DNA of 64,000 bases from a virus. The first letter of the stretch is position 1. Each line of letters opens with the position of its first letter. A program made the position numbers and the translations under genes. A model generated the notes under the pieces. The model did no database searches. It was given only the letters and a program-made list of their open reading frames with translations, and was not told the origin of the DNA. This document shows, piece by piece, positions 2,921 through 40,527 of the stretch. The stretch spans positions 1-64,000 of IMG/VR virus record IMGVR_UViG_3300033977_000049. One strand, given 5' to 3'.

Positions 2921-2928
2921 GAGGATGT

Positions 2929-3171: not shown

Positions 3172-3179
3172 GAGATTTA

Positions 3180-3272: not shown

Positions 3273-3299
3273 AACTAAGAAAAATCTAGAGGATGATGA

Positions 3300-5008: not shown

Positions 5009-5023
5009 AATTCGGAGGATTCA

Positions 5024-8743: not shown

Positions 8744-8792
8744 AGTATCGAAATTTGTGGGAATCATGGTATTATAATGGTGGAGGATGTAG

Positions 8793-9866: not shown

Positions 9867-9874
9867 GGATTTCA

Positions 9875-11195: not shown

Positions 11196-11409
11196 AATAA
11201 CCCTTAAATATACTTCATTAGGTTTGGGATCTGTTTATCAATATCCTCTTGAGCGAGTATTCTTGGATGTAAAAAAGATTTCTTTTTCTCCTAGATTTGT
11301 GGTAGTGAAATTGGAATCGGGTGCAACGCATTCATTTCCTATAAATGAAATTCTTGAAATAACTAGAAAAGAAGGAAGTGCTTCCCGTGGACCGGAAATA
11401 AAAGTATAA
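11185..11409 (+). CDS. Hypothetical protein
   Basis: GGAGG RBS; overlaps upstream stop. Confidence 0.55.
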   Translation: MIVKITLKYTSLGLGSVYQYPLERVFLDVKKISFSPRFVVVKLESGATHSFPINEILEITRKEGSASRGPEIKV

Positions 11410-11415
11410 TTTAAA

Positions 11416-11787
11416 ATGAAAGCAATTGCTTATGTGGAATTAAAAGACGGTCAGCCGATTCGGATTTTTCGTACCGTAAAATCGGCTATGGCATATTCTG
11501 CCAAGATAGTTACGCATCCTGAATTAAAAAACCGGCAGGTTGTGCCGATGGCAAGGATGGATGCGGTTAGAGCGATTAGGAATAAAATATTTGAAATGCA
11601 AGGCCATCGCTGCTTATGGTGCGGAGAATGGCTGGCCAAGGATACAGCGCAGATGCATGAACAGCAGCCGCGTGGGGAAGGCGGCGAAATTAGCTTGGAA
11701 AATTCGATTGTGCTTTGCTATGATTGCCATCAGGGAAGAAAAGATAGTGCCCATGGGAATCGAAGATTACATTTTGGAGGTAAATAA
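11416..11787 (+). CDS. HNH endonuclease
   Basis: CLWC...MHE..PRGEGG...EN...LCYDCH. Confidence 0.8.
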   Translation: MKAIAYVELKDGQPIRIFRTVKSAMAYSAKIVTHPELKNRQVVPMARMDAVRAIRNKIFEMQGHRCLWCGEWLAKDTAQMHEQQPRGEGGEISLENSIVLCYDCHQGRKDSAHGNRRLHFGGK

Positions 11788-11969
11788 TGTGGATTAGATT
11801 AACAATGCCCAATGATAAAAGTATCTATGTAAATTCAGAAGCTATGGATTTTATTCGACTCCCCTTAGCTGTAGAAAATGGGGAATGTGTCATTGGATTT
11901 GCATCTGGACATATACAAGCATTTAAAGAATCCTTTACTGAGGTTATATCTAAAATCATCAAGGAATAA
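11787..11969 (+). CDS. Hypothetical protein
   Basis: GGAGG RBS; TAATG overlap. Confidence 0.55.
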   Translation: MWIRLTMPNDKSIYVNSEAMDFIRLPLAVENGECVIGFASGHIQAFKESFTEVISKIIKE

Positions 11970-11972
11970 AAT

Positions 11973-12557
11973 ATGGGAACCACGAGTCAAACCAAAATCA
12001 CTGTTACCTGTGACAATCCTAAATGCGATGCGGTTGTGGAATGGGTTGCGGAAGAAGTAGAACAAAATGAAGAGGCTGTTCCGGAAGCCTTTTTCCGGAT
12101 TTTAAAATTAACTCGAAGTTATATTGATCCGGCTTCTGGCGAAAAATTAAATCTTTGTTTTTGTTCGGCGCATTGTTTAATTAAATGGCTTCAAAGTTGT
12201 TATAAGCCCTCTATTTCTCCGCGTGAAAAGACTCGGCAGATGCAGGGCAATAAGGATATTTCCAAGGCTGAAAGTGCTTGCAAGGCAACTGGTGTTATCG
12301 ACACCATTCCGCCCCCGCTACCGGAGGGGATAATATTATCCCCTCCGCATTTTCTGCAAGGCGAAGAGAAAATAGTTCGGGCTGAGGAGGTCGATAAAAA
12401 AGCGGTCAACGTAGTTCCAGCCCCGATACCGGAGGGAATGGTATTATTCCCTCCGTATCCTCTTGCTCCAAAACAAGCAGAAGATGCTGCGGCAATGCAA
12501 GCGGATAATGTAACACCCTTGGAAAGTATTGAAAATGAAAACATTAATCCATCATAG
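11973..12557 (+). CDS. Zn-binding hypothetical protein with Pro-rich tail
   Basis: CDNPKC...FCSAHC; internal repeat PPPLPEGIILSPP / PAPIPEGMVLFPP. Confidence 0.6.
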   Translation: MGTTSQTKITVTCDNPKCDAVVEWVAEEVEQNEEAVPEAFFRILKLTRSYIDPASGEKLNLCFCSAHCLIKWLQSCYKPSISPREKTRQMQGNKDISKAESACKATGVIDTIPPPLPEGIILSPPHFLQGEEKIVRAEEVDKKAVNVVPAPIPEGMVLFPPYPLAPKQAEDAAAMQADNVTPLESIENENINPS

Positions 12558-12565
12558 GAGGAAAA

Positions 12566-12946
12566 ATGTGGATTTATGAACAAGCTACCGGTCGTCTATT
12601 AACTCCCGATATAAGCCATATAGCTACCGGTTATGCAGGTGGTAATGAAGGAAAAAATCCTGAAGGCAAAAATAATCCAGATATGCAATGTATTCCAGAT
12701 GTGGGGCCATTGCCACGCGGTATTTATTATATGCAGGAACCAGTGGAGCATCGCTTAGGGTTATTCGCAATACCATTATTGCCAGATAAAAATAATGATA
12801 TGTGCGGACGCGGAGGATTTTATTGCCATGGTGATAAAATTTCTGATCCGGGAAACGGATCAGAAGGATGTATTGTGATGCCAAATGAAATCCGTCATAA
12901 GATGTGGGATTCCATAGATCATGTTATAGCAGTGGTACATGGATAA
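12566..12946 (+). CDS. Tlde1/DUF2778-family L,D-transpeptidase-fold peptidoglycan enzyme
   Basis: GYAG, GPLPRGIY, RGGFYCHGD...SEGCIV (His/Cys dyad). Confidence 0.8.
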   Translation: MWIYEQATGRLLTPDISHIATGYAGGNEGKNPEGKNNPDMQCIPDVGPLPRGIYYMQEPVEHRLGLFAIPLLPDKNNDMCGRGGFYCHGDKISDPGNGSEGCIVMPNEIRHKMWDSIDHVIAVVHG

Positions 12947-13406
12947 AAATATGGATGAAGATCTTCAAAGAGAATATTTAAGTCCGGCTGGATACTTGCT
13001 TTATTTAGCATGTACTTTAGCCTGGAGGGAAGAAAGAAGTAATGGATTAAATGGAATGATGGGAGTATTGTTTGTGCTTCGCAATCGGGTGAAGAAAGAA
13101 TTTTTCGGTGGATCGCTCTATAAAAATATTATTCAGCACGGTCAATTTTCCAGCATGACGATTGTGGGAGATTCCCAGACTGTTGCATATCCTGATCCCG
13201 CTGATCCGACATTCCAAAAATTAATGTCTATGGCCCCTTCGATTCTTAGTGGGGCTAATGAAGGTGATATTACGGCGGGGGCTTTATATTATGCCGATCT
13301 TGGAAGCCCTGCATATGTTAAGGGCGGATGGTTTGATAAGACGATAGTGAATTCTAGCCAACATGAAAGAACAGCGGCAATCGGCAGCACCTTATATTTT
13401 AACTAG
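12939..13406 (+). CDS. SleB/Hydrolase_2 cell-wall hydrolase (endolysin candidate)
   Basis: LAWREER...GMMGVLFVLRNRV...QFSS...GALYY. Confidence 0.8.
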   Translation: MDKNMDEDLQREYLSPAGYLLYLACTLAWREERSNGLNGMMGVLFVLRNRVKKEFFGGSLYKNIIQHGQFSSMTIVGDSQTVAYPDPADPTFQKLMSMAPSILSGANEGDITAGALYYADLGSPAYVKGGWFDKTIVNSSQHERTAAIGSTLYFN

Positions 13407-13415
13407 GAGAATGAA

Positions 13416-14213
13416 ATGAAATTGTTATTGGCTTTAATTTTGGCTGTATTATCTGCACCATTGCTTTTGGCACAAACTCTTTCCCAGGCGGAGAAGGATT
13501 ATGTCAACAATACATTGTACCCCGCGACAGCGTTATTATATGTGCAAAACTCGGAAGGTTCCATGGACATGCGATGCACAAGCACGGCCATAGCAGAAGA
13601 TGATAAAAGTTATACATTTGTCAGCGCAAGCCACTGTGGATGCGTAGAAGATACAGTGAAAAATCTTGTGACTCCAGAAAAAACTTTTTTCTTTATAGCG
13701 CCGGATTCCAGTAAAGATAAAATTTACCTTCGAGCAACTGTTGTGGGATGCGGATTCCGCCATCGTGGTGATGATTTTTTATTGCTCACTATAGGTAAGA
13801 CTGTACATTTCCCTATTGTACCGCTTGGTAAAGATCCCAAATTACTTGATGCATTTATTAATATAGGGGGGCCGCTAGGATTAGGACGACAAGTTTTTCT
13901 TGGTTCGGTTAGTGCTCCGAAGGTAGATAGACCTATAATAGAGGGTGATATAAATTGGGAAGGGGCTGTATTAATTCAGGAATTTGGTGTAAATGGCGGA
14001 TCTAGCGGATCAAGTGTTATATGTCTCGATCAGCATGCTGTGTGCGCGTGTATAGTGGGTAGCGTTGGAGAGACTACTATAATCGGAATGCCAGTTTCCA
14101 GATTAATTAAATTTAAGGCTGATTTAGAGGCTGGAAAATACCGCTGGTATAATTCAAATCCCGATTTGCCTGCAAAAATCATTGTAGAAGGAGAGAGCGG
14201 AAAGAAAGACTAA
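13416..14213 (+). CDS. Secreted trypsin-like (S1) serine protease
   Basis: Signal peptide; triad motifs SASHC, DDFLLL, GGSSGS. Confidence 0.8.
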   Translation: MKLLLALILAVLSAPLLLAQTLSQAEKDYVNNTLYPATALLYVQNSEGSMDMRCTSTAIAEDDKSYTFVSASHCGCVEDTVKNLVTPEKTFFFIAPDSSKDKIYLRATVVGCGFRHRGDDFLLLTIGKTVHFPIVPLGKDPKLLDAFINIGGPLGLGRQVFLGSVSAPKVDRPIIEGDINWEGAVLIQEFGVNGGSSGSSVICLDQHAVCACIVGSVGETTIIGMPVSRLIKFKADLEAGKYRWYNSNPDLPAKIIVEGESGKKD

Positions 14214-14221
14214 GGTGATAC

Positions 14222-14557
14222 ATGTTATATGCATTTACTGCAATTACGCTGGCTTTACTAATCTTATTAGTGGGTGGGGGCACCGTGGCTATCGTGGCCC
14301 TCTGGTCTTCTTCCAGAACTTATCGACAAATAGCAGAACAATTAAAAGAGGAAGGATTGCGCTTGGCTGCTCAACTTGCAGAGCGCGACCTTCACTGCCA
14401 AGCGGTGGCAAAAGCTTTAGAAATAGAACGCAATGTCTTCCAGGAATTTATTAAGAAGCCTATTATTGCCGCTCTTAGTACAGAACAATTTCAAATTTTG
14501 GTTCGGGAAATTAAGTCGGGATTAAAGTACGATAAAGATAAGGAATTATTGAATTAA
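14222..14557 (+). CDS. Membrane protein with coiled coil
   Basis: N-terminal TM helix followed by a heptad region. Confidence 0.55.
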   Translation: MLYAFTAITLALLILLVGGGTVAIVALWSSSRTYRQIAEQLKEEGLRLAAQLAERDLHCQAVAKALEIERNVFQEFIKKPIIAALSTEQFQILVREIKSGLKYDKDKELLN

Positions 14558-15009
14558 TGAACATAAAAGCGATTAACGCTCGCCTTGAAAAATCTTATGG
14601 CATAACCCTGGACGAATATAATCAACTGTTGAAAAGCCAGGATGGGGTGTGTGCAATTTGCAAACGTCCGCCAAAGAAAAATATGCTTAGCGTGGACCAT
14701 GACCATAAATTTAATAAAATCAAGGGCTTTGTGGCAAAATACGGCGTAAAATATGAGGCCATCCCAACCGGAAAGTTTTGGGAATTTATCAAATTAACTC
14801 CCAATAAAGGTATTATTGGGGCCACAAGAAAAGAAGCTCTGGAAAAATTTAGGGCATTTTTCAAAAGAAGATCAATAAGAGGTTTGTTATGTATGAGATG
14901 CAATCGTTCTCTACAAATGATGTGCGATGATCCTGTCAGATTAAGGAGAGCGGCTGATTATTTAGAGCTATTTAATTTGTCCGTAAAGCGGACGGATACA
15001 ATACAATGA
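14557..15009 (+). CDS. Endonuclease VII-family nuclease
   Basis: YGITLDEY...Q.GVCAIC...VDHDH...RGLLCMRCN. Confidence 0.85.
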   Translation: MNIKAINARLEKSYGITLDEYNQLLKSQDGVCAICKRPPKKNMLSVDHDHKFNKIKGFVAKYGVKYEAIPTGKFWEFIKLTPNKGIIGATRKEALEKFRAFFKRRSIRGLLCMRCNRSLQMMCDDPVRLRRAADYLELFNLSVKRTDTIQ

Positions 15010-15317
15010 TTGCAAAATATACTTGCATTAGATGCCATAAAAAGATTAAAGAGGAAGCGTGGTTACATTATGATAAAATAGAATTGGCATTATGCAAAGA
15101 ATGTACTATAAAATCCGTTATGCAATGGGAATCGGATCTCCTGGCGGCAATCAATATTCCTAGCGCTGCTATAGCTGCTTTAGGTAAAAGAGCTAACGGC
15201 TTAGCCGGTAGAACTAAAGGCAAAATAGTTAGAAATCATAATCCGGCAATGCCAACATTATCACTAGAAAGAATGTTTGCGATGGCAAAATCGGTATGGC
15301 AAAAGACTATAATATAA
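15006..15317 (+). CDS. Zn-finger hypothetical protein
   Basis: CIRC...CKEC. Confidence 0.5.
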   Translation: MIAKYTCIRCHKKIKEEAWLHYDKIELALCKECTIKSVMQWESDLLAAINIPSAAIAALGKRANGLAGRTKGKIVRNHNPAMPTLSLERMFAMAKSVWQKTII

Positions 15318-15520
15318 ATACAAAACAGGAAAACAATTCTGAAATGATATTTAATCAGGCGGTTACATTTAGAAGTGTAAGAATGAAAGATCCGGACTTT
15401 ATTACTTTGCATAATATATGTAAATTATTAGATTGTAAGCCAAGTCAAGTATCGAGAAAAGTAAAAGAACTTTTTGATGAGATAGAAAATCTTATAAAAC
15501 AGATTAGGGAATTTCACTAG
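15296..15520 (+). CDS. Hypothetical protein, possible HTH
   Basis: LHNICKLLDCKPSQVSRK helix-turn-helix-like pattern. Confidence 0.4.
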   Translation: MAKDYNINTKQENNSEMIFNQAVTFRSVRMKDPDFITLHNICKLLDCKPSQVSRKVKELFDEIENLIKQIREFH

Positions 15521-15555
15521 GATAAAAGTTGTAAATGAATTTTTAGGAGATTAGA

Positions 15556-16383
15556 ATGAAAAAGATTTGTGTTGTTTCGGATATTCATGCGGGAAGTAGT
15601 TATGGATTACTTCCTCCGAATGCACATTATGGAGAGAATGACTGTCCGCAAAATGATTGCCAAAAATATCTTTGGGATCTATGGCTGAAACATTGCGAAA
15701 CTTTGAAGCAATTAAGGCCCGATCTTTGCATTTTTTTGGGCGATGCTATAGACGGAGATCAATGGAGAAATGGTGGGAGGGAAGTTCGCTCTGTAATTCT
15801 TTCTGCTCAAATTGAATGGGCAAGCGAGATCCTTTCTTATCTTCCTAAAGTTCCTAAATATTTTATCCATGGAACTCCTTATCATGATGGCAAGTCGGGA
15901 GAATGCCTTGAATTAGTTGCAAAAGATATGAAGGCCGTTCAGCCTCCAAAGGGATATCCTTTAGCTGGAAATTATTCCTTCCATAGCCTGGATTTATCTA
16001 TGGAAGGAGTGGATATTAATTTTTTACATGAAATTCCCATTAGCGGAGCGTTATATCGAGGGGTGGCTCCAGATAGGGAAATGATTTGGAGCGCCCTGGC
16101 CGGGAAAGAAGGAAAGGCTTTAAAATGCGATTTGGTTGTAAGGGCGCATGCTCATTATTTTGTACATGTAGAACATGCAAGTAAACATGGCGTGATTAAT
16201 CCCTGCTGGCAACTTCCTACGCCTTATACTACTAGAAAATCCGCTTTCCGGATGATACCGGATATAGGAGGAACCTTTATTACGGTTGATGGTAAAGCAA
16301 AAGAGGCAGGAAGAGATCCTATTTTTGTTCAAAAATTTATTTATCCTCTGCCTCTATTTAAATCCATATCAATAGGGAAATAA
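15556..16383 (+). CDS. Calcineurin-like metallophosphoesterase
   Basis: SDIH, LGDAIDG, GTPYH, H, AHAH motifs. Confidence 0.85.
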   Translation: MKKICVVSDIHAGSSYGLLPPNAHYGENDCPQNDCQKYLWDLWLKHCETLKQLRPDLCIFLGDAIDGDQWRNGGREVRSVILSAQIEWASEILSYLPKVPKYFIHGTPYHDGKSGECLELVAKDMKAVQPPKGYPLAGNYSFHSLDLSMEGVDINFLHEIPISGALYRGVAPDREMIWSALAGKEGKALKCDLVVRAHAHYFVHVEHASKHGVINPCWQLPTPYTTRKSAFRMIPDIGGTFITVDGKAKEAGRDPIFVQKFIYPLPLFKSISIGK

Positions 16384-16385
16384 AT

Positions 16386-16700
16386 ATGGATGCTAAAAAA
16401 TATTTTAAAGATCAAATATTAGCCATGAAAAATATTAAGCCAAGAATTGTGGATATGAATATTAATTTTATTATTAATGATATTCCTTTTAAAGAATCGA
16501 ATACAGATAGGGTTAAGAAATATTTGCAATCTTTATCATTAGGGAAAATGGTTACAACCAATAAGCTTGCTAATATTTTACAGATACATCCGGCGGATTA
16601 TTCTTTAAAAAAATTATCCGATTATCAAGTTCGATATAATGGAATAAAATATTGGGGAAATATAGATACTATAAAGAAATTTAAAGAAAAATATCTTTAA
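16386..16700 (+). CDS. Hypothetical protein
   Basis: Operon-embedded ORF. Confidence 0.5.
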   Translation: MDAKKYFKDQILAMKNIKPRIVDMNINFIINDIPFKESNTDRVKKYLQSLSLGKMVTTNKLANILQIHPADYSLKKLSDYQVRYNGIKYWGNIDTIKKFKEKYL

Positions 16701-16705
16701 TTTAA

Positions 16706-17137
16706 ATGAGATTATATTTAGCTGCTAGCTATTCTCGCAAAAAGGAAATTAAAGCCATAGCCAAGCGCTTTAGAAAGGCTGGCTTTAAAATAACATCGGA
16801 TTGGTTCAATCGCACTGATGGCCTTCATTTAAAGGAAGAGGCGGAAAGCGATATTGCCGGTGTGCGTCTGTGCGATGCGCTTGTACGCTTTACTGACAAA
16901 GCAGATGAAAGTTATGTTCCAATAGAATTAATCAGTGGCGGTAGGATGTTTGAAACGGGATTTGCCTGTGCTATAGGAAAGATTATAGTTACCGTGGGCG
17001 GGAAACAGAATGTATTTGATGATTTGCCTTATATTATTCATGCAGAAAATGTTTCACATGCGATTAAAATCTTAAGGAGAAAACGGGATGGGATCAACGC
17101 AAAGATTCGCAACGGGAGCAACGCGAGATGCAGATGA
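16706..17137 (+). CDS. Nucleoside 2-deoxyribosyltransferase-like protein
   Basis: LYLAAS...D..GV..CDALV...GGRMFETGFA. Confidence 0.75.
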   Translation: MRLYLAASYSRKKEIKAIAKRFRKAGFKITSDWFNRTDGLHLKEEAESDIAGVRLCDALVRFTDKADESYVPIELISGGRMFETGFACAIGKIIVTVGGKQNVFDDLPYIIHAENVSHAIKILRRKRDGINAKIRNGSNARCR

Positions 17138-17441
17138 AGGAAAATTAGATTATGAAGGTTTTCTTTCCCCTTTAGCAATTAAGCGATATGCTCAATATAT
17201 GCATGAGCATAGAATGCAATCAGATGGCACTTTAAGAGATTCAGATAATTGGGCCAAGGGAATTCCGCGTAGAAAATATATGAAATCGTTATATCGTCAT
17301 GTGTTAGATGTATGGTATCTCTTGCGTGAATATCCAGAACTGGCAACCACCAATGATATTCAAGATGCCCTTTGTGGAGTCATGTTTAATTCAATGGGGA
17401 TGCTCCATGAAATACTTCTTAAGAGAGACGTCAATTCATGA
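17088..17441 (+). CDS. dATP/dGTP diphosphohydrolase-like protein
   Basis: FATGATRD..GKLDY...NWAKGIP...SLYRH...FN. Confidence 0.75.
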   Translation: MGSTQRFATGATRDADEGKLDYEGFLSPLAIKRYAQYMHEHRMQSDGTLRDSDNWAKGIPRRKYMKSLYRHVLDVWYLLREYPELATTNDIQDALCGVMFNSMGMLHEILLKRDVNS

Positions 17442-17848
17442 TTTATAAAACCACCAAAGAAAATTTTGAATGCTTTAAGCAGTCTGTTATTTGCTGGCAA
17501 AAATTATTTGGCCTTACCGATTATCGTATAGAAGTAGAACACAATAAACTTCAGCGGCAGGATGCTCTGGCTCATATATCTTGCGATATAGATGAAAGGT
17601 GGGCCGTTATTACTCTCAATATAAAATGGCCTTTTAAGCCAAACGGACTCGGCTTAGAAAAATCAGCATTCCATGAAATCTGCCATCTTTTGACGGCAGA
17701 AATGGATAAGCTTGGCAAGGAAAGATATAGTACTTTGGATGAAATTAATCGGGCTAATGAAGCATTTGTTTCAAGAATGGAAAATTTCTACGAAGATTTT
17801 ATCTATCCAAAAATGAAAAATGGGCATCTTAAAAAGAATGCCCATTGA
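17438..17848 (+). CDS. Zincin-like metallopeptidase-fold protein
   Basis: AFHEICHLL HExxH motif with downstream NE. Confidence 0.65.
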   Translation: MIYKTTKENFECFKQSVICWQKLFGLTDYRIEVEHNKLQRQDALAHISCDIDERWAVITLNIKWPFKPNGLGLEKSAFHEICHLLTAEMDKLGKERYSTLDEINRANEAFVSRMENFYEDFIYPKMKNGHLKKNAH

Positions 17849-20800: not shown

Positions 20801-23800
20801 GCAATAGCATTTTTCGCGGCTATATCAAATTTCCCAGCTTCAAACCAATATCCATTTCCATTCTTGCCAAATTTTATAGCTCCCTTTTCCAAGGCGCTGT
20901 CAACTGTATCTCCCAATCCATATTTCAGCATGGATGATAATTTCAAATTTTGTTCGTGAGTGCTAAATTTTCTTATTGGAATTATATCGTTTCCAATAAT
21001 CCAACCCTGTTCATACGGCTTGCGCGTTATTGGCTTGGGGATTTCGGCTCTAAGGCGTAAGATACTGTCGGCTTTGGCTGCCCTGTTTTTTTCGAGATCG
21101 GTTCTGTAATCCTGGATGCGTGTGGCAATATCTTGCAAAGTCTTAATATCAGGTTTTTCAACTGAGCCTTCCTCGATTCTTGTGACTGCATCTTTTGCTG
21201 CGCGTTCTGCGTTCTCAATAACGCCTGGATCAATTCCTGCTCCTGTGAGGGCATCTCTTACCTCCTTATCGGTTGCTAAAAGTTCTACTAAATCTGTGGT
21301 CTGTGCTTTTAATTCTTTTTGCCATATATCCGGACTGGATTCCATTTGTTTAACAATAAAATCTAATGGCTTGCTACTCGCTGTATCCAATCCACTTAAT
21401 TCCGCTAGGGTTCTCATAAATATCCATACTGAGGCCTGCGCTTGTGATGGAGTCCAGTTTAAATCCTTGGCTATGTTTCTTAATTGAGCTTGATATAACA
21501 AATATTCATGAGGCCTGCCTTGATAATCAAACGGTTTTTGGCCCTTAAACAATTGCATCCATGTATCAATTGTAGCTCGATGGTTATTGCCCATTAAATT
21601 AGCGAAGAAGGCAGAAACTTTTGGCCCTGAAAGATCACTCCATTCCGATAGGGTTGACATAATATTGTCCGGGACTTTATATGGTCGTGGTTCTCCGGTG
21701 CGATAATCTCTATAATCATCATAATATTCAGAACCGGCTAGATCTGTTCCAATTTTTTGAGATTCAATTGCCCTGCCATGCGCTATATCAGTAATTGATT
21801 TTCTGTCCGCTGGCCTTCCTTTATCATTCCAATCTCCCCATATCTGCAAAGCCTGGATAAGGTCCGTTTTTACAGCCTTACGGGGAGAAATGGCAGCAAG
21901 TAATTTAGTAAAAATTGGAAAATCTTCCGGATTGAATATTTTTTGGAATCCAGCTAAATATCTATCATACCAGAAACGGCCTCCTGCGCCCACTAATGCG
22001 GCAGCTTTTAATTGTTCGGGCATTGCTTTATCGGCGGTATCTGCTGCCAAATATAATTTTTGATAATGCGGTGACAGTTTATTCCATTCCCATTGGTCAA
22101 TACCTGAAGGCGTGGGAGTCTGTTGTTTTCCATATCTTTCCGCTCCATGGGATTCATCAATTAAATCCTGGGCATGTTTATAAATCTCACCCATTGCATG
22201 ATGCAAGCGGGGATCTATTTCTTCGGCCAACTTTCTAGAATACAAGGCATATCTTTCCCTGGCTTCGTTGACGATTTTTTCTAAAGGCGAGGCGGATTCA
22301 TGCAAGGTGGTAATATCAATATCTGGGGCTAGTTGAAGTAAAAATTCCGCTCCTTTAGTTGCGGCAGCATGCAATTTGTCAGTACTTATAGCTGGAAGTC
22401 TACGTTTTAAAGATTCTGGCATGCTGTTAAGCATTTGGCTTGCCAATCCATAAAGCTTGCCAGCAAAATTTCTTAACATTGTAGTATCTGCCCAGCTTTT
22501 TTCTAGGGCATTTTCATCAAAATCAGCCTCGGATGCGGTGGTAAGTTTTTTGGCTAATTCAGTTCCCTCATATACTGCTGTGTTATAAATATTGGCATGG
22601 GAGATATTATCCGCATTCTTTTGCAACCAATCCACGGTACGAGCCATAGATTCGGCTGTTTCTCCCGGAAGTCCGATCATGATGTTGGGAATCAGGGCAA
22701 TATCCGCTTCCTTTAGCCTGGCGGCTGCCTTATCAATTAACTGCTCTGTAGCTGGTTTGTGCAATTCTTTCAATAGATCATTATTATAAGTTTCTACTCC
22801 GATTTCCGCAAAGCGGATACCAGATTTCTTTAACCAATCAATGGAAAATTTATTTGCTTGCGCGGCTGTGGTTTGTATAATGAATCCGCCAAAATCGGGA
22901 TTAATATCCTTGATGCGGTTATAAAGTTCCGGAAGCATTTCATAATTGGGAGCTTGCCCAAATGTTTTGTCGTTCAGATATACCAATCTCGAACCTAGCT
23001 TGCCAATAGCATCGGCCTGTTGATTAATAGCTTCTGGAGATGGCATTTCAATGCGTTTTTCTATCGTACAAAAGGCGCATTTATGTAGGCATCCAGTAGA
23101 CATGGTAAGGCGAGGAATAACATCCTGGCCAGATTCTTTGAAGTGGCGATAGTCCACGCCTTCTTTATACGGCACGCCCATGTCACGGGCTAGGCTTGCC
23201 ATATTATCATGCCATTTTACATTAGGTAAATCTTTAAAGAATTCCGCTCCACCGCTATATCCGCCAACATCTATATGGCCTTTATAGGCAGATGCTATAT
23301 TACGGATCATATCTCTATTAACATCTAGTGCTGAAAATGCTATTCTTCCATATCCGGCCTTACTCAAAAAATCTTTAGCTTCCGATAAACTACGGATCAC
23401 ATATGCATCAGCATCGGGAATAAAATTAGAAGCAAATCCCATCCACTGCGGAATCTCCCAAAAATCATCTAGGCGTTTATATCCCGGCCTGCTACCATCA
23501 TATAATTTATCATAATAACGGCTTTCCATAACCTCTTCCGGCAATCGAGGTTCGCTTGATTCTGGGTTAATTAGCTTATTGGATATTTGAACGAGCAATG
23601 TTCTATGAGCATTGCCGGTTTCTCGCGCTCCCTTGCCCGTGTCTACGGATCTACGTATCCAGGGGTTTCCGGTATCAGCAGATGCTTCCTTATAGGTATA
23701 ATTGGGATTGGAAATATCGCTTCCATCAATATTTAGAAGCTTTAGATCTGGCAACCCCTCCCTGGATCTTATTTCTTCGGCACTTAAAGGAATATTAGCT

Positions 23801-26800
23801 AAATCAATTGAATCTTTTCCTTGCAGGAGAGTATCATTTGGTCTAGCCAGCTTTCTCATTGCCTGTTTACGAAAACCAAATTCCGAATCGTTAGCTTCGG
23901 CAAGATTTCTATAAGCCAAATGTCCATAACCCTCTCGATCAACATTCCAGTCAATTCCAATAGGGCTATTAGGATGAGTTTTTAATCTAGTTAAGGCATC
24001 GGAAACTTGCTCAATTGTATTAGGATTGAGTCGCCCAAATTGAATACCTACAAATCCAGCATGTTGATCGCCTGGATTCATAATACGGATTAATCCTGCA
24101 TTAAATGCATCTTCATAGTCTGTATATCCATGCTCTGTCAACCATTCAGGATGCCCAAGGGGAACCGTTTCAGATCGGCCATCGGGAAAGATAAATGAAG
24201 ATCCCTCAACCGGGCCTAATATTATGCTAGGGCGCTTTCCTTTTATATCCACTCCAGCTTCTTCCCGAACTTTATCCTTCATTTGCAGGAGAACATTAAA
24301 TTGTTGCTGTTCAAATTTCCTGCCTTGTTCTTTTCTCATTTCCCCAAGGCGATCTTCGGGATTAGGCCATGCCGCGTCCCCTGGTTTTATACCGGTTCCA
24401 CCGGTGGAAATAAATGGATAATTTTTACCATCAAGATGTACGATTCCCTGCTGGTTATATTTTTTCCCCAGCATCATAGCTTGCCCTATATCCGGCACAG
24501 TTACACTAACTTCCATTATCCATTGTTTAGCATCTTTATCATACCAAACTCCTACGTTATTAGAAGGATCGCGCAATAATCCTATTATTTTAGGGCTAGC
24601 AATAAACCCCTGCACTTCTTTAGCAGTAGGTTTATGATCTAATTTAATTGTATATTCATTTTCGGGATAGATACTAACTGCATATTCTCCCGAAACTCCC
24701 ATATTACCGCGATATAAATTAAAGGTAGCTCCATTATTAGCCTGAACTAAATCAGAAATAGCTTCATGGGGATTTAATATTTCTTTTCTAGGTCTACCTA
24801 TGCGTCCGAATATTTCTTCAAGAAAAGGAGGTAGTGGGATCTTAAGCATTTGGGCAGATGGATTTCTTAGGCCATCATATATATCTCTCATCCACCGCTT
24901 GAACTTAGCAAATACCCCTGCCATTTCCGGTACATAAGTTCTACCGGTAATTAAATGAGATTCCAAAGCTCTTGCAGTTTTTTCTTCAGCATCAACAGTC
25001 CATGTTCCGTTTTTCACTCCAGCCCAATTTTCTAATATCCTTAAATCTTCTTCCGGTAGCCCTCTCCGGAAAACGTGGAACATTTCATGCACAAGCGTAC
25101 TAAAATCGGCCCCTTGCATAGCGCGTATAATCACCTTGCCATCATTCTGAAAATCGGCCATGCCTTTTACACCGGCCCATCTTTCTCTAGGTATGCCAGC
25201 AGCCCTTAAATGCTCTTCAGTCCCTCGTTCAAATCCTTCTAATCCTCTTTCCCTCCAATATTCTTCTAGTGACACCCCTCGCATGCGAGCAAAGGCGCGA
25301 GCCAAGGAAATTCCACCCTCCACTTGTTCATCTGTTAATCCCATTCCCCAGGCATCTTTAATTTGCTGTCTAAATTTATCTGTAACAGGTTCCAGTCCAA
25401 CCGTTTCTTGTAATAATGGCTTTTCTACTTTAGGAACCGCTTCTTCTGGGGGAGCTAATTTAGGAAATCTGACAACAATATCACCATTTTTAATGGCCTT
25501 ATCTAATGTTCCTTCTTTTCTCCTAGCTTCGATTTCCTTAGCGGCAATGCGAATATCTCTAATTCTACGTCCGTCAATCAAAAGAAATGGATTTTCACCA
25601 TTAGGCATTTCCACAACTTTTCCGGAACCGGAATAGGCTGCTATTGGCCTGCCATCTGAAGTTTTATTACCGCGATCAATCATATCGGCTACAAATTCAC
25701 GAGCCGCAATAGCCTCTCCCAAACGGGCTTTATAATTAGCCATTAATTCAATAGGATCGGTTATAAGAAGTTTTTTACCCAAAAGCATGCCCAGCACTGT
25801 ATCATCTATAATACGATGATTCAGCATGGAAATATTAGTATGAAATTCTGAATAGTTTCTTATTTCATGCACAAAACGATTAACTGCCTGATTATCGGTA
25901 TCTTTACCCCAAATACGAGTAATATAATCTTCGATAAAAGGTATGTGTATATCATGCAGGGCCGCATTTGCTAAATCCGCTGCAAATTCATTTTCAGACA
26001 ATTTTGCCAATTCCCGAATACGGGCAGTAGGATTAATTGATTTTTCATATATCTTGATTATTCTATCAATTTCTTCTGGAGTATATTTTGTTGATACTAA
26101 ACGACGCCCCGCAACCTCCAGTTTTCTTTTATCCATTTCTTCATGAATAGAAGTCAGGTCCGGCCTAATATCAGTCCGTCCCATTTCTAGCACAGGAATG
26201 TGTTCAAATCCTAAATCTTTATAGGCTTGCAAAGCATATCTTCCATTAACGCCAACAATATTACCTTCCGCATCTCGATAAATTTCAATCGGATCTATCG
26301 GCCTTCCCGCTCTAATGCGATGAATAACAGTATCAATATTCTTTTGGGCTTCTTCTCTAAGCTCTGGAGACATGCCTTGACGTATATCAAGGCTTCCAGA
26401 TGTTGCCATAAGCGTAGCATCAACAGATTTAAGAATAGGCTCTTGATTAGCCCTAGCGTTTGGATCGTAAATTTCAGCGCGGGGCCTTAATCTTTCTGTG
26501 TCTTCGGCGGTAGCCCTTCCAGCCGATTCTTTGAATAAACTTAAATCTCTCTGAAGAGCTTCTTTATCTTCTCCTCTATCCCTTAAAAGAAAGGCAGCAA
26601 ATCTATCTTCAGGATTTACATCTTTAAATGTTTTGTTTTTATCAGCCCTAAATAAATCCGCCGTTCGATTTACTTCGGTAACTTTTCTATCAAATTCACC
26701 ACCCATCTGTCGTGTTTTTTGAGCTTCCTCGCTAGGTATTAAATTTTGAATTCCAAATTTTTCTGCTAATGCTCCCACTTCTGGCCTTAAATGAGCGCGA

Positions 26801-27900
26801 GCTTGAAATCCTGCTGCCACTCCTAGTCCTATATTACCCAAAATAGAAGGTGCCATTTCAAGTGCTTGTGCCGGATCTTCAGAAAGAGCCTTTCTAAATT
26901 GAGGATATTGGTATATCGCTCCCAATATCATATTTGTACTAAAACCTAAATCAGTTAACCCCTGTATGGTTTTTGCAATAGTATCAGCCTTGGTTAATGG
27001 CATTCTAGCGCTACGAAGTATAGCGCCAAGTCCATTAATAATCAGTCCGCGATTTCTTAAATCGGAAAGATCAAGCCCTATCCTTCTTAGCCAATATCTT
27101 CCTTCTGTAAATAAGCGAGGATTAATGCCAGCCGATGAAAGAGCTTCTGGAACGCTTCTTCCTAAAGACATGGCTTTTTCAGCTATTTGTGCTCCACGGG
27201 CGATTTCTCCTATTTCATCATTTGTAAATAATCTAGCGGCAGCGGCAACTCCCTGCTTGCCTAGCGCTTCAATGGTTTCTTTACTGGCAGCACCAGCCGC
27301 TACATCTCTAAGCGCTGCCTCTCCAGCCGCCGTACCCAATCCACCTCCCCAGGTTCCTATAGTCAATGCGAGCATAGCAGGAGCGGTTTGAGAATATAGC
27401 AAATCTGTAATAAATCTACCCACACCTCCCACAAGTGCTCCAGTATATTTCCCGGCAGCCTCTCCAGCAAAAGTGCTAACAGCTTCTTTAGTGGATTCTC
27501 CGATCTCTTTAGCCCATCTTCCTCCTTCATATTTTAATACATCTGGTAATCCCAAGGCATCAACTATTTGATTGCCCTTAGGTTCCCAAATCCAATCCCA
27601 CATAGATCTGATAACGCCTTCTTTATCTCGCTGGGAAGTGGCAGGTGGGGCTATAGCCGGTTCGGTAGAAACTGGAGTTGAACTGATCGGAATTAATCCT
27701 AATTCCTCTGGGCTTTTGTAACCAATGGATTCTTTTGTTATAGAAGTTAATGGTGTTAGCCCAAGTTCTTCAGGAGATTTATAAGTAGTAGGAAATCGCC
27801 CTGCTATAGGCGGTGCTACTGGCATGGGAGATTTAGCTTTTGTTGCTACGGGAATTAATCCAAGCTCTTCCGGCGATTTGTAAATATCTTGATCTGCCAT
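17878..27900 (-). CDS. Giant (3340 aa) internal virion/ejection protein of large-polyvalent-protein type
   Basis: Last gene of the structural arm; contains degenerate ParB-like, HExxH metallopeptidase, SAM-lyase-like, CxxxCxxC radical SAM and glycosylase-like segments. Confidence 0.8.
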   Translation of the reverse strand: MADQDIYKSPEELGLIPVATKAKSPMPVAPPIAGRFPTTYKSPEELGLTPLTSITKESIGYKSPEELGLIPISSTPVSTEPAIAPPATSQRDKEGVIRSMWDWIWEPKGNQIVDALGLPDVLKYEGGRWAKEIGESTKEAVSTFAGEAAGKYTGALVGGVGRFITDLLYSQTAPAMLALTIGTWGGGLGTAAGEAALRDVAAGAASKETIEALGKQGVAAAARLFTNDEIGEIARGAQIAEKAMSLGRSVPEALSSAGINPRLFTEGRYWLRRIGLDLSDLRNRGLIINGLGAILRSARMPLTKADTIAKTIQGLTDLGFSTNMILGAIYQYPQFRKALSEDPAQALEMAPSILGNIGLGVAAGFQARAHLRPEVGALAEKFGIQNLIPSEEAQKTRQMGGEFDRKVTEVNRTADLFRADKNKTFKDVNPEDRFAAFLLRDRGEDKEALQRDLSLFKESAGRATAEDTERLRPRAEIYDPNARANQEPILKSVDATLMATSGSLDIRQGMSPELREEAQKNIDTVIHRIRAGRPIDPIEIYRDAEGNIVGVNGRYALQAYKDLGFEHIPVLEMGRTDIRPDLTSIHEEMDKRKLEVAGRRLVSTKYTPEEIDRIIKIYEKSINPTARIRELAKLSENEFAADLANAALHDIHIPFIEDYITRIWGKDTDNQAVNRFVHEIRNYSEFHTNISMLNHRIIDDTVLGMLLGKKLLITDPIELMANYKARLGEAIAAREFVADMIDRGNKTSDGRPIAAYSGSGKVVEMPNGENPFLLIDGRRIRDIRIAAKEIEARRKEGTLDKAIKNGDIVVRFPKLAPPEEAVPKVEKPLLQETVGLEPVTDKFRQQIKDAWGMGLTDEQVEGGISLARAFARMRGVSLEEYWRERGLEGFERGTEEHLRAAGIPRERWAGVKGMADFQNDGKVIIRAMQGADFSTLVHEMFHVFRRGLPEEDLRILENWAGVKNGTWTVDAEEKTARALESHLITGRTYVPEMAGVFAKFKRWMRDIYDGLRNPSAQMLKIPLPPFLEEIFGRIGRPRKEILNPHEAISDLVQANNGATFNLYRGNMGVSGEYAVSIYPENEYTIKLDHKPTAKEVQGFIASPKIIGLLRDPSNNVGVWYDKDAKQWIMEVSVTVPDIGQAMMLGKKYNQQGIVHLDGKNYPFISTGGTGIKPGDAAWPNPEDRLGEMRKEQGRKFEQQQFNVLLQMKDKVREEAGVDIKGKRPSIILGPVEGSSFIFPDGRSETVPLGHPEWLTEHGYTDYEDAFNAGLIRIMNPGDQHAGFVGIQFGRLNPNTIEQVSDALTRLKTHPNSPIGIDWNVDREGYGHLAYRNLAEANDSEFGFRKQAMRKLARPNDTLLQGKDSIDLANIPLSAEEIRSREGLPDLKLLNIDGSDISNPNYTYKEASADTGNPWIRRSVDTGKGARETGNAHRTLLVQISNKLINPESSEPRLPEEVMESRYYDKLYDGSRPGYKRLDDFWEIPQWMGFASNFIPDADAYVIRSLSEAKDFLSKAGYGRIAFSALDVNRDMIRNIASAYKGHIDVGGYSGGAEFFKDLPNVKWHDNMASLARDMGVPYKEGVDYRHFKESGQDVIPRLTMSTGCLHKCAFCTIEKRIEMPSPEAINQQADAIGKLGSRLVYLNDKTFGQAPNYEMLPELYNRIKDINPDFGGFIIQTTAAQANKFSIDWLKKSGIRFAEIGVETYNNDLLKELHKPATEQLIDKAAARLKEADIALIPNIMIGLPGETAESMARTVDWLQKNADNISHANIYNTAVYEGTELAKKLTTASEADFDENALEKSWADTTMLRNFAGKLYGLASQMLNSMPESLKRRLPAISTDKLHAAATKGAEFLLQLAPDIDITTLHESASPLEKIVNEARERYALYSRKLAEEIDPRLHHAMGEIYKHAQDLIDESHGAERYGKQQTPTPSGIDQWEWNKLSPHYQKLYLAADTADKAMPEQLKAAALVGAGGRFWYDRYLAGFQKIFNPEDFPIFTKLLAAISPRKAVKTDLIQALQIWGDWNDKGRPADRKSITDIAHGRAIESQKIGTDLAGSEYYDDYRDYRTGEPRPYKVPDNIMSTLSEWSDLSGPKVSAFFANLMGNNHRATIDTWMQLFKGQKPFDYQGRPHEYLLYQAQLRNIAKDLNWTPSQAQASVWIFMRTLAELSGLDTASSKPLDFIVKQMESSPDIWQKELKAQTTDLVELLATDKEVRDALTGAGIDPGVIENAERAAKDAVTRIEEGSVEKPDIKTLQDIATRIQDYRTDLEKNRAAKADSILRLRAEIPKPITRKPYEQGWIIGNDIIPIRKFSTHEQNLKLSSMLKYGLGDTVDSALEKGAIKFGKNGNGYWFEAGKFDIAAKNAIARAIQERFGDAESFSIFSGKSKPFITSDPIDAIRALRYGMMGEHNIHGRISNELNTEAYSTPRSIENIPSNPTALFQESPAWDERDQAVKDGAALLWDHPMPMNEWFRQMRLRHNDAIIKDPEIYADSLRHILKMAEKSRPEDLKNIQKTAANNDTNHLAYIARELARVELIDPRYVQDRVDNALRAAGYSGRYNYKEPKGFVDFPTKPPKLLFQRMGIQESITGSGWISPSGKFKELPEGSEHPDILPERFGTGEEASNKAIDRGYIRIRSWKSDNAPDYKQWNIETSSYQSALDTLNRLPASPDNSDIYISVLREIPLEEWEDRQYNHYHGTIKDITRKLINRANKENILLQEKGGPISGEEMALPPAIEDKTQRLTGVPDNPPPKDPLDATLQRPKGDPIYLYNTHDYMTIDHPAFRHWNWAAYAPDGTPVLVKGDVRVHPDVYQYVTRRLGLEQSPLRGSAVGRAVLGLGTQFKQILLSLSPFHISQLGLRSLMSGVIPRLVKWDLKTDPDLAMLVEQSMTLGHRFQAESDFSEGLSASGTKSILLRKMPGIRDAQNWLQEFTFERLMPSLKAMVGKKLFGEWRERFAKDPKLYERYLQAHPDFSGLDPIRAAARAAAIETNERFGGLNYRDMGRSVGTQDWFRLVTLAPDWLESEVRLVKRLFDPTGGKLLRRDMAYFVGAMWVTARAVNMLVNNGQAHPEAPFGIVTEDKEGHKKVWSMRTLPGDMFHMADDPVGFMRGRASPTMRMATSLYSGRDALGRKLTPWQQTMDVVRNVMPISLQYIGKSAAGEMPAEIPSWQQGLRGAGIIPTPLRSEAESKAIQLATNRTEEGPVDEAALRKHQLMLEYEDQLRKGEISQQDLHQMVEDGQIPLDEAKRIVKEIRTTGGMDPALARLYLRCSRLAMPDFLQVWDLMTSSEKTSLSALMLQKKKAYQTKALKKMTPAERKADPTYQWILRTFPGSRPWEEE

Positions 27901-31201: not shown

Positions 31202-31375
31202 TTACTTCTCTTTGGGACTAACTAACTCGTGGGCAGCAGAAATTACTTTCTTTGCCAACACGTTAATTTCTTTTGCAGATACGTTAGGGAAATGGGATCT
31301 GACTATGCGCCCAACAGTAAAGTGCGATAATCTATTAATAGAATTATGGATTTCTCGCCTTTGATTTTTATTCAT
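31202..31375 (-). CDS. 57-aa hypothetical protein (not in ORF track)
   Basis: MNKNQRREIHNSINRL...SPKEK exactly fills the gap, overlapping the upstream stop (TAATG). Confidence 0.55.
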   Translation of the reverse strand: MNKNQRREIHNSINRLSHFTVGRIVRSHFPNVSAKEINVLAKKVISAAHELVSPKEK

Positions 31376-32583
31376 TAAATATTTAACGCTCCCGCTGGTC
31401 TATATCCATTTTTTAAGGATACTAATTCGGCCACTACCCAGCATTCTCCGTCAAAATTTTTCTCGGTTGTAAATAAGCGAGGGGCTTGAAATCTTACCGG
31501 AGTTCCTATTTGCTGAGCTTTGATTTTATTAGTAAAATATAGAAAGCTATTTTGATTCCAAAAGCTTTTATTAGAAGAGTCTTGAAAGGCTCCTCTGCCA
31601 TCGGTTGAAGAAACTTGAATGAATGCCCATCCAGCCGGGGCTAAAACTCTATACAATTCCTTTATAACGTGAATGGGATCTTTTAATTTAGAAAATATAT
31701 CGAAAGCCCTTATAACTCCCACCGAACTATCGGCTAAGGGCCATTTCTTATTTAAATTATTATCTAGGCATGTAAATCCTTGGCGCGTGACTTTACCCAA
31801 TTCTATTTTCTTCAACCCATTAATATCTGCCCAGCGCTCTGTAAGTTGTTTAATATATTTATCATATATCGTAAAAACATTATCTTGAATCTCTGCATTA
31901 ATATCTGATTTTAGCCAAGTATTTTCTCCATGAATTCTGTAAATATATAAACCTTTATCAATTCTGAGAAATTTAGTGGCTAAATACATTCTGCATATTA
32001 AATCCAAATCATCTAATACCCTTAAATCTTTTGCATATCCACCAATAGATTCATAAACGGATTTGCGAAATGCTCTTATGTGATCTGGGGCATACCAAAT
32101 TCTGGAAACAGAATCGGGATATGGATCAAAGGCAATGAATTCATTTAATTTTATCCCATTCCATTCTATTTCTCTATATTTCCAACCATGAGTTTCATCG
32201 TACAATGCAGGCTTCGTATAGCGCGGGCCTTCTTTATTCAATTGAGCATGGACTAGATTAGAATATACAAATCCAATTTCTGGATCTTGAAAGGCTTTAT
32301 AAACTTCCTCTAAGGCGTTGGGCATTAAAAGATCATCGTGATCCATTTCCACAAATATCTCTCCTGTAGCTTTTGCACATGCCGCCGCCTTTAGCGGACC
32401 AATCATTTTAGGGGCATTCCATTCTAAAAATCCCTTAACCCTAGAATCACTAAATTGAATGGGCTGTGCCCCGTTATTATAAAGGATTATCCATTCCCAA
32501 TCCGTATAGGATTGTAATTTTAAAGATTCGTATAACTCATTCAACCATTTAGAATCATGCGTTGCAGTGTATACTGAAATCAT
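31375..32583 (-). CDS. GT2 glycosyltransferase fused to a methyltransferase-like domain
   Basis: ISVYTATH, Q.YTDWEWII, MDHDD, LDDLDL; C-terminal WPLADSSV...KELYRVLAPAG. Confidence 0.85.
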   Translation of the reverse strand: MISVYTATHDSKWLNELYESLKLQSYTDWEWIILYNNGAQPIQFSDSRVKGFLEWNAPKMIGPLKAAACAKATGEIFVEMDHDDLLMPNALEEVYKAFQDPEIGFVYSNLVHAQLNKEGPRYTKPALYDETHGWKYREIEWNGIKLNEFIAFDPYPDSVSRIWYAPDHIRAFRKSVYESIGGYAKDLRVLDDLDLICRMYLATKFLRIDKGLYIYRIHGENTWLKSDINAEIQDNVFTIYDKYIKQLTERWADINGLKKIELGKVTRQGFTCLDNNLNKKWPLADSSVGVIRAFDIFSKLKDPIHVIKELYRVLAPAGWAFIQVSSTDGRGAFQDSSNKSFWNQNSFLYFTNKIKAQQIGTPVRFQAPRLFTTEKNFDGECWVVAELVSLKNGYRPAGALNI

Positions 32584-33110
32584 TATTTTGGTGCGCTCCG
32601 ACTTCCAGAATGAATTCTATATATCCAAGTAATTTCTGGAATAAATTTAAATTTAGCTCCAAGCTCGCCCAATCTTAACCACATATCCCAATTGGGATAA
32701 ACGGCCTTTCTAAATCCATTTACACTTAGCAGTGTAGATTTTTTGGTTAAAACAGTTGTTGGAATATAATTTTTTACCCTTAATGAAAATAAATCAAAAT
32801 CTTGAGATGTCCAGCTTTTACAGGCTCCCTGCATTTCGCAATCAGAATAAATTACGTCACATTCATCATGTTCTGCCCATAATCTTTCTAAATGATGTGG
32901 AAGAAATAAGTCATCGTCATTTAAAAATGCAATCCATTCTGTTTTTGATTCTCTTAATAAAGTATTAAGGGTATCAGCCTCTCCCTTGCGCTGTTGATCT
33001 ATGGCAATAATATGGTCAAACGCCTTCATAGTTTGATGTGAAACGGATTTCCTGCATTCCGTTAGCATACAATAGCGCTCTGGAAGAGATGGAGTTAAAA
33101 CTGTAATCAT
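32583..33110 (-). CDS. GT2 glycosyltransferase
   Basis: ITVLTPS, FLNDDD, WDMWLR, YRIH. Confidence 0.85.
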   Translation of the reverse strand: MITVLTPSLPERYCMLTECRKSVSHQTMKAFDHIIAIDQQRKGEADTLNTLLRESKTEWIAFLNDDDLFLPHHLERLWAEHDECDVIYSDCEMQGACKSWTSQDFDLFSLRVKNYIPTTVLTKKSTLLSVNGFRKAVYPNWDMWLRLGELGAKFKFIPEITWIYRIHSGSRSAPK

Positions 33111-33111
33111 A

Positions 33112-34836: not shown

Positions 34837-35069
34837 TATGAAACCTGTGCAGAATTACCAAAATCTATCGCAAAACAACTACTGGTTCTCGGGGTAGAAG
34901 CAGAACCTCCATCAATAAGTAAATTGCCAAAGAAAATAGTAGCCATCTGATTTAATGAAGCCTGTACCGTTTGGCCGCTTTGCACTAGGGGTATAATTTC
35001 CCCTCCCTGTAGGGCAGCGGCTTGCGGCAATTGGCTTATTTTTATCTCTTGTCTATTAATATATGCCAT
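34836..35069 (-). CDS. Small tail-associated protein
   Basis: [18 protein letters not shown] motif typical of fibre N-termini; IDGGSA. Confidence 0.6.
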
Positions 35070-35071
35070 GA

Positions 35072-38983: not shown

Positions 38984-38991
38984 ATATTCTC

Positions 38992-40516: not shown

Positions 40517-40527
40517 TTTCCCCTTTT

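Follow-up and report, generated by a model that had tools for sequence, protein, structure and literature searches.

A predicted radical SAM unit in a giant phage protein and its linkage to the Ogg2-like domain DUF7178

Injected phage proteins carry polymerases, ADP-ribosyltransferases, peptidases and lysozymes, and we know of none that performs radical chemistry. Here we analyze a window of 64,000 nucleotides (positions 1 to 64,000 of the 87,974-base IMG/VR virus record IMGVR_UViG_3300033977_000049) that encodes, on its minus strand, an uninterrupted open reading frame (ORF) of 3,340 residues, termed P0001. This giant protein contains a radical S-adenosylmethionine (SAM) unit followed by a DUF7178 domain. 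Large multidomain proteins of comparable character, the polyvalent proteins of phages and conjugative elements, were described by Iyer, Burroughs, Anand, de Souza and Aravind in 2017, and their delivery together with DNA was proposed (PMC5512222); 131 domains are catalogued in that work, and the word "radical" has no occurrence in its main text. On the enzyme side, class I B12-radical SAM enzymes carry a five-strand, five-helix Rossmann domain before the barrel, and AprD4 and ArsL possess a Rossmann-related domain without cobalamin binding (2026 review, PMC12931638).

The radical SAM unit of P0001 shares features with several solved enzymes. Like the class B enzymes MgmA/QCMT (9ccb), CysS (9n1d), OxsB (5ul4), TsrM (6wtf) and TokK (7kdx), it has a five-stranded Rossmann-like N-terminal domain followed by a CxxxCxxC core, with VIA Z scores of 17–21 over 320–364 residues; unlike them, it matches no B12-binding hidden Markov model (HMM), is only 10–16% identical in sequence, carries a conserved, family-specific insertion after the first strand, and occurs almost only in viruses, embedded in proteins of 2–5 thousand residues. 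With AprD4 (6fd2) it shares the two-domain order and the lack of an auxiliary cluster, but the identity is 15%, and AprD4 is a radical SAM diol dehydratase that acts on an aminoglycoside in antibiotic biosynthesis, with no phage or DNA context. The methylthiotransferases MiaB, RimO and MtaB combine a flavodoxin-like N-terminal domain with a related core and are the closest PDB sequences (RimO, E 6e-5), but the unit has neither their N-domain cysteines and auxiliary cluster nor their TRAM β-barrel, its C-terminus being helical. Judged by sequence, the unit falls outside every curated class B, AprD4 and methylthiotransferase family and appears to represent a new, virus-only family of radical SAM proteins, in a setting that is likewise new. 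A full-text search of the literature turned up neither an account of a radical SAM domain in polyvalent or ejection proteins of phages nor one of DUF7178. We propose, with a probability of roughly 0.6, that the unit works as a radical SAM enzyme, forms a cargo cassette within a probably packaged polyvalent protein and acts with DUF7178, most likely on DNA, a nucleobase or a nucleotide.

The radical SAM unit and its family

Residues 1433–1835 of P0001 are a genuine and intact radical SAM unit. Pfam Radical_SAM (PF04055) matches residues 1600–1759 with an E value of 2.9e-14 (54–57 bits against a gathering score of 29.5), and a six-frame search of the whole record returned this unit as the sole radical SAM match. 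An AlphaFold2 model of residues 1395–1850, built with 33 homologues, reached a mean predicted local distance difference test score (pLDDT) of 91.7 and a predicted template modelling score of 0.89. In the model, an α/β domain is followed by a (β/α)6 core that bears the cysteine motif and then by a helical tail (Table 1). The first of these contains five strands, at model residues 40–45, 103–108, 125–130, 148–153 and 167–169, together with five or more helices. The motif, the HMM score above cut-off and the predicted partial TIM barrel place the unit in the radical SAM superfamily.

A preliminary description, made from the letters of the window, had read this region as a cobalamin-type radical SAM enzyme. 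The strings it quoted, namely LTMSTGCLHKCAFC, LVYLNDKTFG, GIRFAEIGVET, NIMIGLPGET and IAFSAL...IDVGG, all lie in frame in the P0001 ORF, and its placement of CxxxCxxC at nt 23068–23091, corresponding to C1604, C1608 and C1611, is exact. The Rossmann-like segment that it noticed ahead of the core is the five-stranded domain of the model, and the HMM and structure searches that it suggested for the region returned the Pfam match and a predicted TIM-barrel radical SAM fold. Its span, about residues 1448–1833, covers nearly the whole unit but begins some 15 residues too late. The true start is strand β1 (TLLVQIS, residue 1433, nt 23604); the border is set there because the ORFs of free-standing homologues begin at exactly this point and because of the AlphaFold2 model. 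Relatives align to P0001 from about residue 1433 to about residue 1835.

An exhaustive profile-free search with the unit retrieved 3,412 proteins at E ≤ 0.001, among them 305 representatives of clusters (50% identity) at E < 1e-30, and the three cluster cysteines are invariant in all 59 aligned relatives; a chance match is therefore ruled out. The core motifs NDKTFGQ, GFxxQT, ExGxE and PNxxxGxPxE are likewise invariant across relatives that are only 28–60% identical, and invariant positions of the N-terminal domain comprise the Q of LLVQ, the E, P and W of FWEIPxW, the S of FSAL, and GGY.

By sequence relationship, the unit appears to define an almost exclusively viral family whose members are either embedded in giant proteins or free-standing. 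Almost all of the best 150 relatives are 1,000–5,300 residues long, and the place of the unit in them varies; 157 giant relatives came from a second search, and a third found more than 250 free-standing proteins of about 370–430 residues. Relatives are encoded at 73 IMG/VR loci, across which the unit is 45–64% identical, while the remaining parts of the giant proteins cannot be aligned. Other slices of P0001, 150–200 residues long, each match at most nine proteins (eight homologues among giant proteins in the case of residues 1051–1200). Scaffold segments from both ends of P0001 recur in one small group (P0042–44, locus L013), in which the position of the cassette differs: the segment of residues 521–809 stands before the enzyme cargo in P0001 and after it in the related P0044. 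Only seven cellular loci, mostly on contigs of metagenome-assembled genomes (MAGs), were found among 185,579 prokaryote species genomes, in a scan that depends on peptide patterns and is no proof of absence. A tblastn search of 50,697 GenBank phage records with the unit found no close relative, its one match being a stretch of 25% identity in Staphylococcus phage Kay, and BFVD contained no close relative either, with identities of 16% or less.

The distribution of cysteine sets the unit apart from its surroundings. Among the 3,340 residues of P0001 are four cysteines: three belong to the motif, and none falls in residues 1390–1603. Outside the unit, 185 giant homologues together contain 246 cysteines in 421,293 residues (0.058%); inside it, 131 of the 185 have exactly three and 49 have four. 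The retention of the cluster cysteines while cysteine is purged elsewhere indicates strong selection on the cluster ligands, and the number of cysteines in the unit leaves no room for an auxiliary cluster. This pattern would agree with a protein that is exposed to oxidizing conditions.

Fold relatives and the cobalamin question

Foldseek with the unit model returned 271 PDB matches at E ≤ 0.001. AprD4 is the top structural match (VIA Z 21.1, rmsd 3.6, 357 residues aligned), and the cobalamin-dependent enzymes MgmA/QCMT, CysS, OxsB and TsrM reach Z scores of 20.7, 19.5, 18 and 17.7, respectively. The methylthiotransferases MiaB, MtaB and RimO score about 19–19.7, and single-domain radical SAM enzymes lie lower, at about 15. 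In these model-based comparisons the two-domain matches, that is AprD4, the class B enzymes and the methylthiotransferases, are effectively tied. Since AprD4 and ArsL have this fold without cobalamin, the fold alone cannot decide whether cobalamin is bound.

The first position of AprD4 points to a cobalamin-independent enzyme of the AprD4/ArsL type, in which the Rossmann domain, either having lost cobalamin or never having had it, would bind substrate and the reaction would be a radical rearrangement, an elimination, a lesion reversal or a group transfer, not a methylation. Further points in this direction come from sequence profiles. ArsL is among the NCBIfam matches of the unit, and HMMs of B12-binding domains fail: PF02310 matches neither P0001 nor any other part of its genome even at E ≤ 10. 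Between β1 and the first helix the family carries an invariant insertion of its own, YYDKLY...GY.R..DFWEIPxW, which differs from the loops of class B enzymes. Against this stand the Z scores of AprD4 and the cobalamin-dependent MgmA, which differ by less than 1, and the NCBIfam AprD4 model, which gives just 14–18 bits against a cut-off of 500. We regard an AprD4-like enzyme as plausible, at less than even odds.

A cobalamin-dependent class B methyltransferase would instead hold base-off cobalamin in its Rossmann domain and, once injected, transfer a methyl group to an unactivated carbon or phosphorus atom in DNA, in RNA, in a protein or in a signal molecule. The five-strand, five-helix N-terminal domain fits the published description of class I enzymes (PMC12931638), and the Z scores for MgmA, CysS, OxsB and TsrM are high. 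The best NCBIfam match is the P-methyltransferase family PhpK at 61.5 bits, accompanied by the ladderane-B12 and HpnJ families, with MiaB/RimO in second place; these matches cover only the radical SAM core and remain far below the family cut-offs (600 for PhpK), and the unit exceeds the cut-off of no curated class B family (PhpK, HpnJ, ladderane, KedN5 and others). Weak, sub-threshold PF02310 matches occur in 10 of 59 relatives (best E 0.0015), whereas the methylthiotransferase N-domain UPF0004 (PF00919) matches none of the 59.

Five bacterial genomes supplied the class B enzymes (10 cellular sequences in the alignment) and the methylthiotransferases for profile comparisons with hhalign. The isolated N-terminal domain aligned with its class B counterpart over 73 columns in register, at a probability of only 47% (E 1.9e-4); the FWEIPxW helix fell on the first helix, FSAL on β3 and GGY on β4. 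The corresponding comparison with the methylthiotransferase N-domain gave 1.2% (E 0.044, 15 columns). At full length, the unit aligned with class B enzymes across both domains (99.3%, E 7e-21, 302 columns) and with methylthiotransferases over the core only (98.8%, E 9.9e-17, 169 columns). Searched alone against PDB sequences, the N-domain profile gave only chance-level matches. With the missing PF02310 match in P0001, the cobalamin-free top structural match and the low NCBIfam scores, we consider a cobalamin-dependent methyltransferase rather unlikely.

A methylthiotransferase was considered and rejected because the N-terminal domain has no cysteine, the C-terminus is helical, and the UPF0004 and N-domain profile comparisons are unfavorable. 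Taken together, sequence profiles and the model support a class B-type architecture and make a common origin of the unit and class B enzymes probable. The match to B12-binding class B enzymes claimed in the preliminary description thus holds at the level of the fold, but cobalamin is not established, given the absence of a PF02310 match and the first rank of AprD4; binding of cobalamin by the unit seems possible, with the odds clearly against it.

The DUF7178 partner and a proposed mechanism

Pfam lists DUF7178 (PF23802) as a family of unknown function. Its match in P0001 covers residues 2079–2163, and iterated HMM searches widened the domain to about residues 1935–2235. When a model of the domain (pLDDT 72.9) was compared with 48,161 PDB representatives, the top 24 matches all belonged to the helix-hairpin-helix (HhH) glycosylase superfamily, comprising DNA glycosylases and the queuine-salvage enzyme DUF2419. 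The best match is the Thermotoga Ogg2-type protein TM1821 (3n0u; Z 12.1, 179 of 209 residues). A search of PDB sequences with the DUF7178 profile found MjaOgg (3fhf, "N-glycosylase/DNA lyase") at E 4.5e-4. The invariant K2094 and D2112 align on the Lys and Asp of the Ogg2 chains. A Lys/Asp pair is catalytic in Ogg2 and EndoIII enzymes. Similar to TM1821 and MjaOgg, DUF7178 has a predicted HhH fold with Lys and Asp 18 residues apart; it differs from them in its identity of only about 9%, its extra insertions and the moderate confidence of its model. On this sequence and model evidence, DUF7178 probably folds as an Ogg2-type HhH DNA glycosylase/lyase.

DUF7178 accompanies the radical SAM unit both within and outside the giant proteins. 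It is fused in 100 of the 185 giants, in 92 of which the radical SAM unit precedes it. Among 19 viral loci with a free-standing radical SAM gene, 8–9 have a separate DUF7178 gene on the same strand at a distance of 0–2.2 kb, the two genes overlapping in two loci, and DUF7178 is the only neighbor family that recurs in more than three of the 19. One Neptuniibacter MAG contig likewise has a DUF7178 gene near a free-standing radical SAM gene. The free-standing pairs lie among small early genes, beside genes for DNA polymerase, primase, an anti-restriction protein and a deoxynucleoside monophosphate phosphatase. The free-standing DUF7178 proteins are basic, with isoelectric points (pI) of 9.2–10.2. 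We favor a DNA-directed cassette because DUF7178 is fused or adjacent to the unit and because the free-standing copies lie in replication gene clusters. The preliminary description had left the target open among phage DNA, host RNA or protein, and a defense signal; the Ogg2-like linkage and the replication clusters narrow this list and point to DNA.

Based on these findings, we propose a plausible mechanism for the cassette. C1604, C1608 and C1611 would hold a [4Fe-4S] cluster, which would reductively cleave SAM to yield the 5'-deoxyadenosyl radical. The Rossmann-like front domain, which in its architecture is homologous to the cobalamin domain of class B enzymes and lies over the mouth of the barrel, would supply cobalamin or substrate binding. 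The radical SAM cassette would cooperate with the co-inherited DUF7178, acting as an Ogg2-type HhH glycosylase/lyase, and the most likely target would be DNA itself, or a nucleobase or nucleotide that is to be built into DNA or has been taken out of it. The cassette may thereby repair or modify the genome of the phage at about the time of entry or of replication. Here, a polyvalent protein would have taken up the cassette, and virions probably package this protein and deliver it along with the DNA.

Several observations weigh against this proposal. The radical SAM unit is acidic (median pI 5.6–5.9), which is unusual for a protein that binds DNA directly and would be just as compatible with a protein or small-molecule substrate. 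DUF7178 was not detected in about half of the giants, and the pairing of domains in polyvalent proteins is in part promiscuous. At the sensitivity used, no close homologue was found among cultured phages in GenBank. Finally, an oxygen-labile [4Fe-4S] enzyme that passes through the tail channel, probably unfolded, would need its cluster rebuilt in the new host, which weighs against action immediately after injection.

Delivery, timing and genomic context

The domain content of P0001 resembles that of polyvalent proteins: a radical SAM unit, an Ogg2-like domain and an HExxH zincin-like segment stand in one phage protein of 3,340 residues. Its giant relatives carry ART-PolyVal, GNAT, SLT, ParBc, NUDIX and zincin-type modules in shuffled order, as well as histidine phosphatase and several "large polyvalent protein" domains. 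The hallmark polyvalent domains PF18760 (ART-PolyVal), PF18823, PF18857, PF18834 and PF18838 occur in homologues, and P0001 itself has only the HEMFH segment. The family stands apart through its iron–sulfur radical enzyme as cargo, for which no precedent was found in the literature searched. From gene position, composition and polyvalent character, P0001 is likely to be a virion or ejection protein.

When the enzyme acts is a separate matter. It may work late in the producer cell, on phage DNA before or during packaging or on virion proteins, so that any packaged copy would be inactive cargo. The gene lies in the late block with structural genes, to be expressed when iron–sulfur assembly and reductants are available; the free-standing homologues belong to replication clusters, as ordinary early or middle genes with cytoplasmic products; and, from the established chemistry of [4Fe-4S] enzymes, the cluster is unlikely to withstand oxygen and transit through the tail. 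This rival is serious because the unit is acidic, because domain co-occurrence is promiscuous, and because the cluster must either survive oxygen and ejection or be re-loaded. We nonetheless consider it unlikely: the repeated capture of the cassette into at least 185 giants needs a reason, for which delivery is the usual explanation (PMC5512222), and the near-total loss of other cysteines is in keeping with an existence outside the cell. The opposite case, in which the iron–sulfur enzyme is packaged and injected with the Ogg2-like domain as a virion-borne DNA repair or modification kit that performs radical chemistry on the incoming or the host's DNA before any phage gene is expressed, would require refolding and re-insertion of the cluster in the new host, and we hold it to be distinctly unlikely.

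P0001 might also be a cytoplasmic multi-enzyme protein that merely adjoins the tail genes. No structural PHROG or Pfam domain was detected in P0001, and the nearest cultured phage, Tunturiibacter phage Tunturi_3, has no giant gene matching it. Such a role is improbable, as the P0001 gene ends the structural block and shares its strand; closer relatives have the giant gene immediately after those for portal and head; homologues carry ART-PolyVal and, in one case, an SLT lysozyme-type domain, two modules that typify injected proteins; and the cysteine content is as low as 0.058%. That the domain is degenerate or purely structural, without catalysis, is very hard to reconcile with three cysteines kept invariant in otherwise cysteine-purged proteins, with core motifs preserved across divergent relatives and with a unit more strongly conserved than anything else in the giant proteins.

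Table 1. Coordinates of P0001, its domains and late-block genes in the 64,000-nucleotide window
Feature	Position	Strand	Basis or remark
Giant ORF P0001	17878..27900	-	terminal gene of late/structural block; polyvalent-protein character
Radical SAM unit, complete (residues 1433-1835)	22396..23604	-	conserved in 305 clusters; AlphaFold2 model; free-standing homologues
N-terminal Rossmann-like (B12-binding-like) domain (residues 1433-1590)	23131..23604	-	DSSP of model; invariant columns; hhalign
CxxxCxxC, putative [4Fe-4S] ligand motif (C1604/C1608/C1611)	23068..23091	-	invariant in 59/59 relatives
Radical SAM (beta/alpha)6 core (residues 1591-1786)	22543..23130	-	PF04055; VIA Z 15-21 to solved enzymes
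C-terminal helical extension (residues 1787-1835)	22396..22542	-	only helices after about model residue 380 (DSSP)
DUF7178 domain (residues 1935-2235)	21196..22098	-	PF23802; predicted Ogg2-like HhH DNA glycosylase/lyase fold
DUF7178 invariant K2094	21619-21621	-	18 residues from D2112
DUF7178 invariant D2112	21565-21567	-	18 residues from K2094
Zincin-like HExxH segment (HEMFH, residues 938-942)	24862..25170	-	further cargo domain; phrog_9880, E 5e-12
Large terminase (TerL)	61549-63504	-	late block
Portal	58945-61029	-	late block
Major head protein	54565-55437	-	late block
HNH endonuclease / endonuclease VII-like genes	55505-56383, 61031-61546, 51651-52391	-	structural block

The record stems from an uncultured phage (CheckV completeness 89%), and a peat metagenome was the sole sequencing run found to hold the stretch. 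Replication genes, including primase/helicase, a clamp-like processivity factor and an exonuclease, occupy positions 1–17848 on the plus strand. The minus-strand late block upstream of P0001 contains structural genes, among them tail fibers of the collagen-like/Mtd_N type, and several GT2 glycosyltransferases. Three GT2/TPR glycosyltransferase genes, one encoding a protein of 1,057 residues with several glycosyltransferase domains, are interleaved with collagen-like fibers in the tail block at 31375–43281 (−); a nucleotide-sugar epimerase and another glycosyltransferase follow beyond the tail block, at record positions 65533–68221. An HNH endonuclease gene separates the major head protein gene from the genes on the portal side, and two endonuclease VII-like genes lie inside the structural block. 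TerL and portal are 30% and 33% identical, respectively, to those of Tunturi_3, whose host belongs to the Acidobacteriota and came from Finnish soil; this kinship fits the peat origin. Tunturi_3 has only a small free DUF7178 gene, annotated as "portal protein", which looks like a mis-annotation.

The remainder of P0001 has few recognizable relatives. A megablast search of phages with its gene gave no match, and tblastn with its two halves gave matches confined to the zincin-like and DUF7178 segments; the former is 29–38% identical to hypothetical proteins encoded by cultured podophages (Xanthomonas phage CP2 and Pseudomonas phages AF and HU1) and by Leptolyngbya phage Lbo-JY46. Kinship with the N4 virion RNA polymerase was considered and dropped, since P0001 outside the radical SAM unit has no sequence similarity to any solved chain; the mention of "radical SAM" in the N4 paper refers to an HExxH motif only. 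At its extreme N-terminus, P0001 contains the nine-residue sequence YKSPEELGL three times (residues 7, 40 and 61; 27694–27882, −), and no homologue of this segment (residues 7–69) was found in about 300 related proteins. A ParB/sulfiredoxin-like stretch at about residues 520–600 (26100–26400, −) contains GVNGRYALQAYKDLGFEHIPV. Seven L[LF]Q motifs occur in P0001 (residues 829, 1204, 1358, 1854, 2441, 2579 and 2718), against an estimated 1.7 expected from composition, and those at residues 1358 and 1854 bracket the radical SAM unit. As processing sites at the unit borders they were rejected: in 165 giants, 171 such motifs were observed against 164 expected, and they are not positioned at the borders. 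If the motifs of P0001 are processing sites, they are specific to its lineage.

The size of the family and its standing as the most conserved module of hypervariable giant proteins make it likely that the radical SAM unit matters to these phages. If injected, it would add an entirely different chemistry to the repertoire of injected proteins and would raise the physical puzzle of how an iron–sulfur enzyme survives packaging, the outside world and ejection. The free-standing homologues of 380 residues offer convenient material for biochemistry, and the linkage to a DNA-glycosylase-like domain provides a lead towards a new pathway of DNA repair or modification. If the enzyme were cobalamin-dependent, infection by these phages would be tied to the B12 status of the host.

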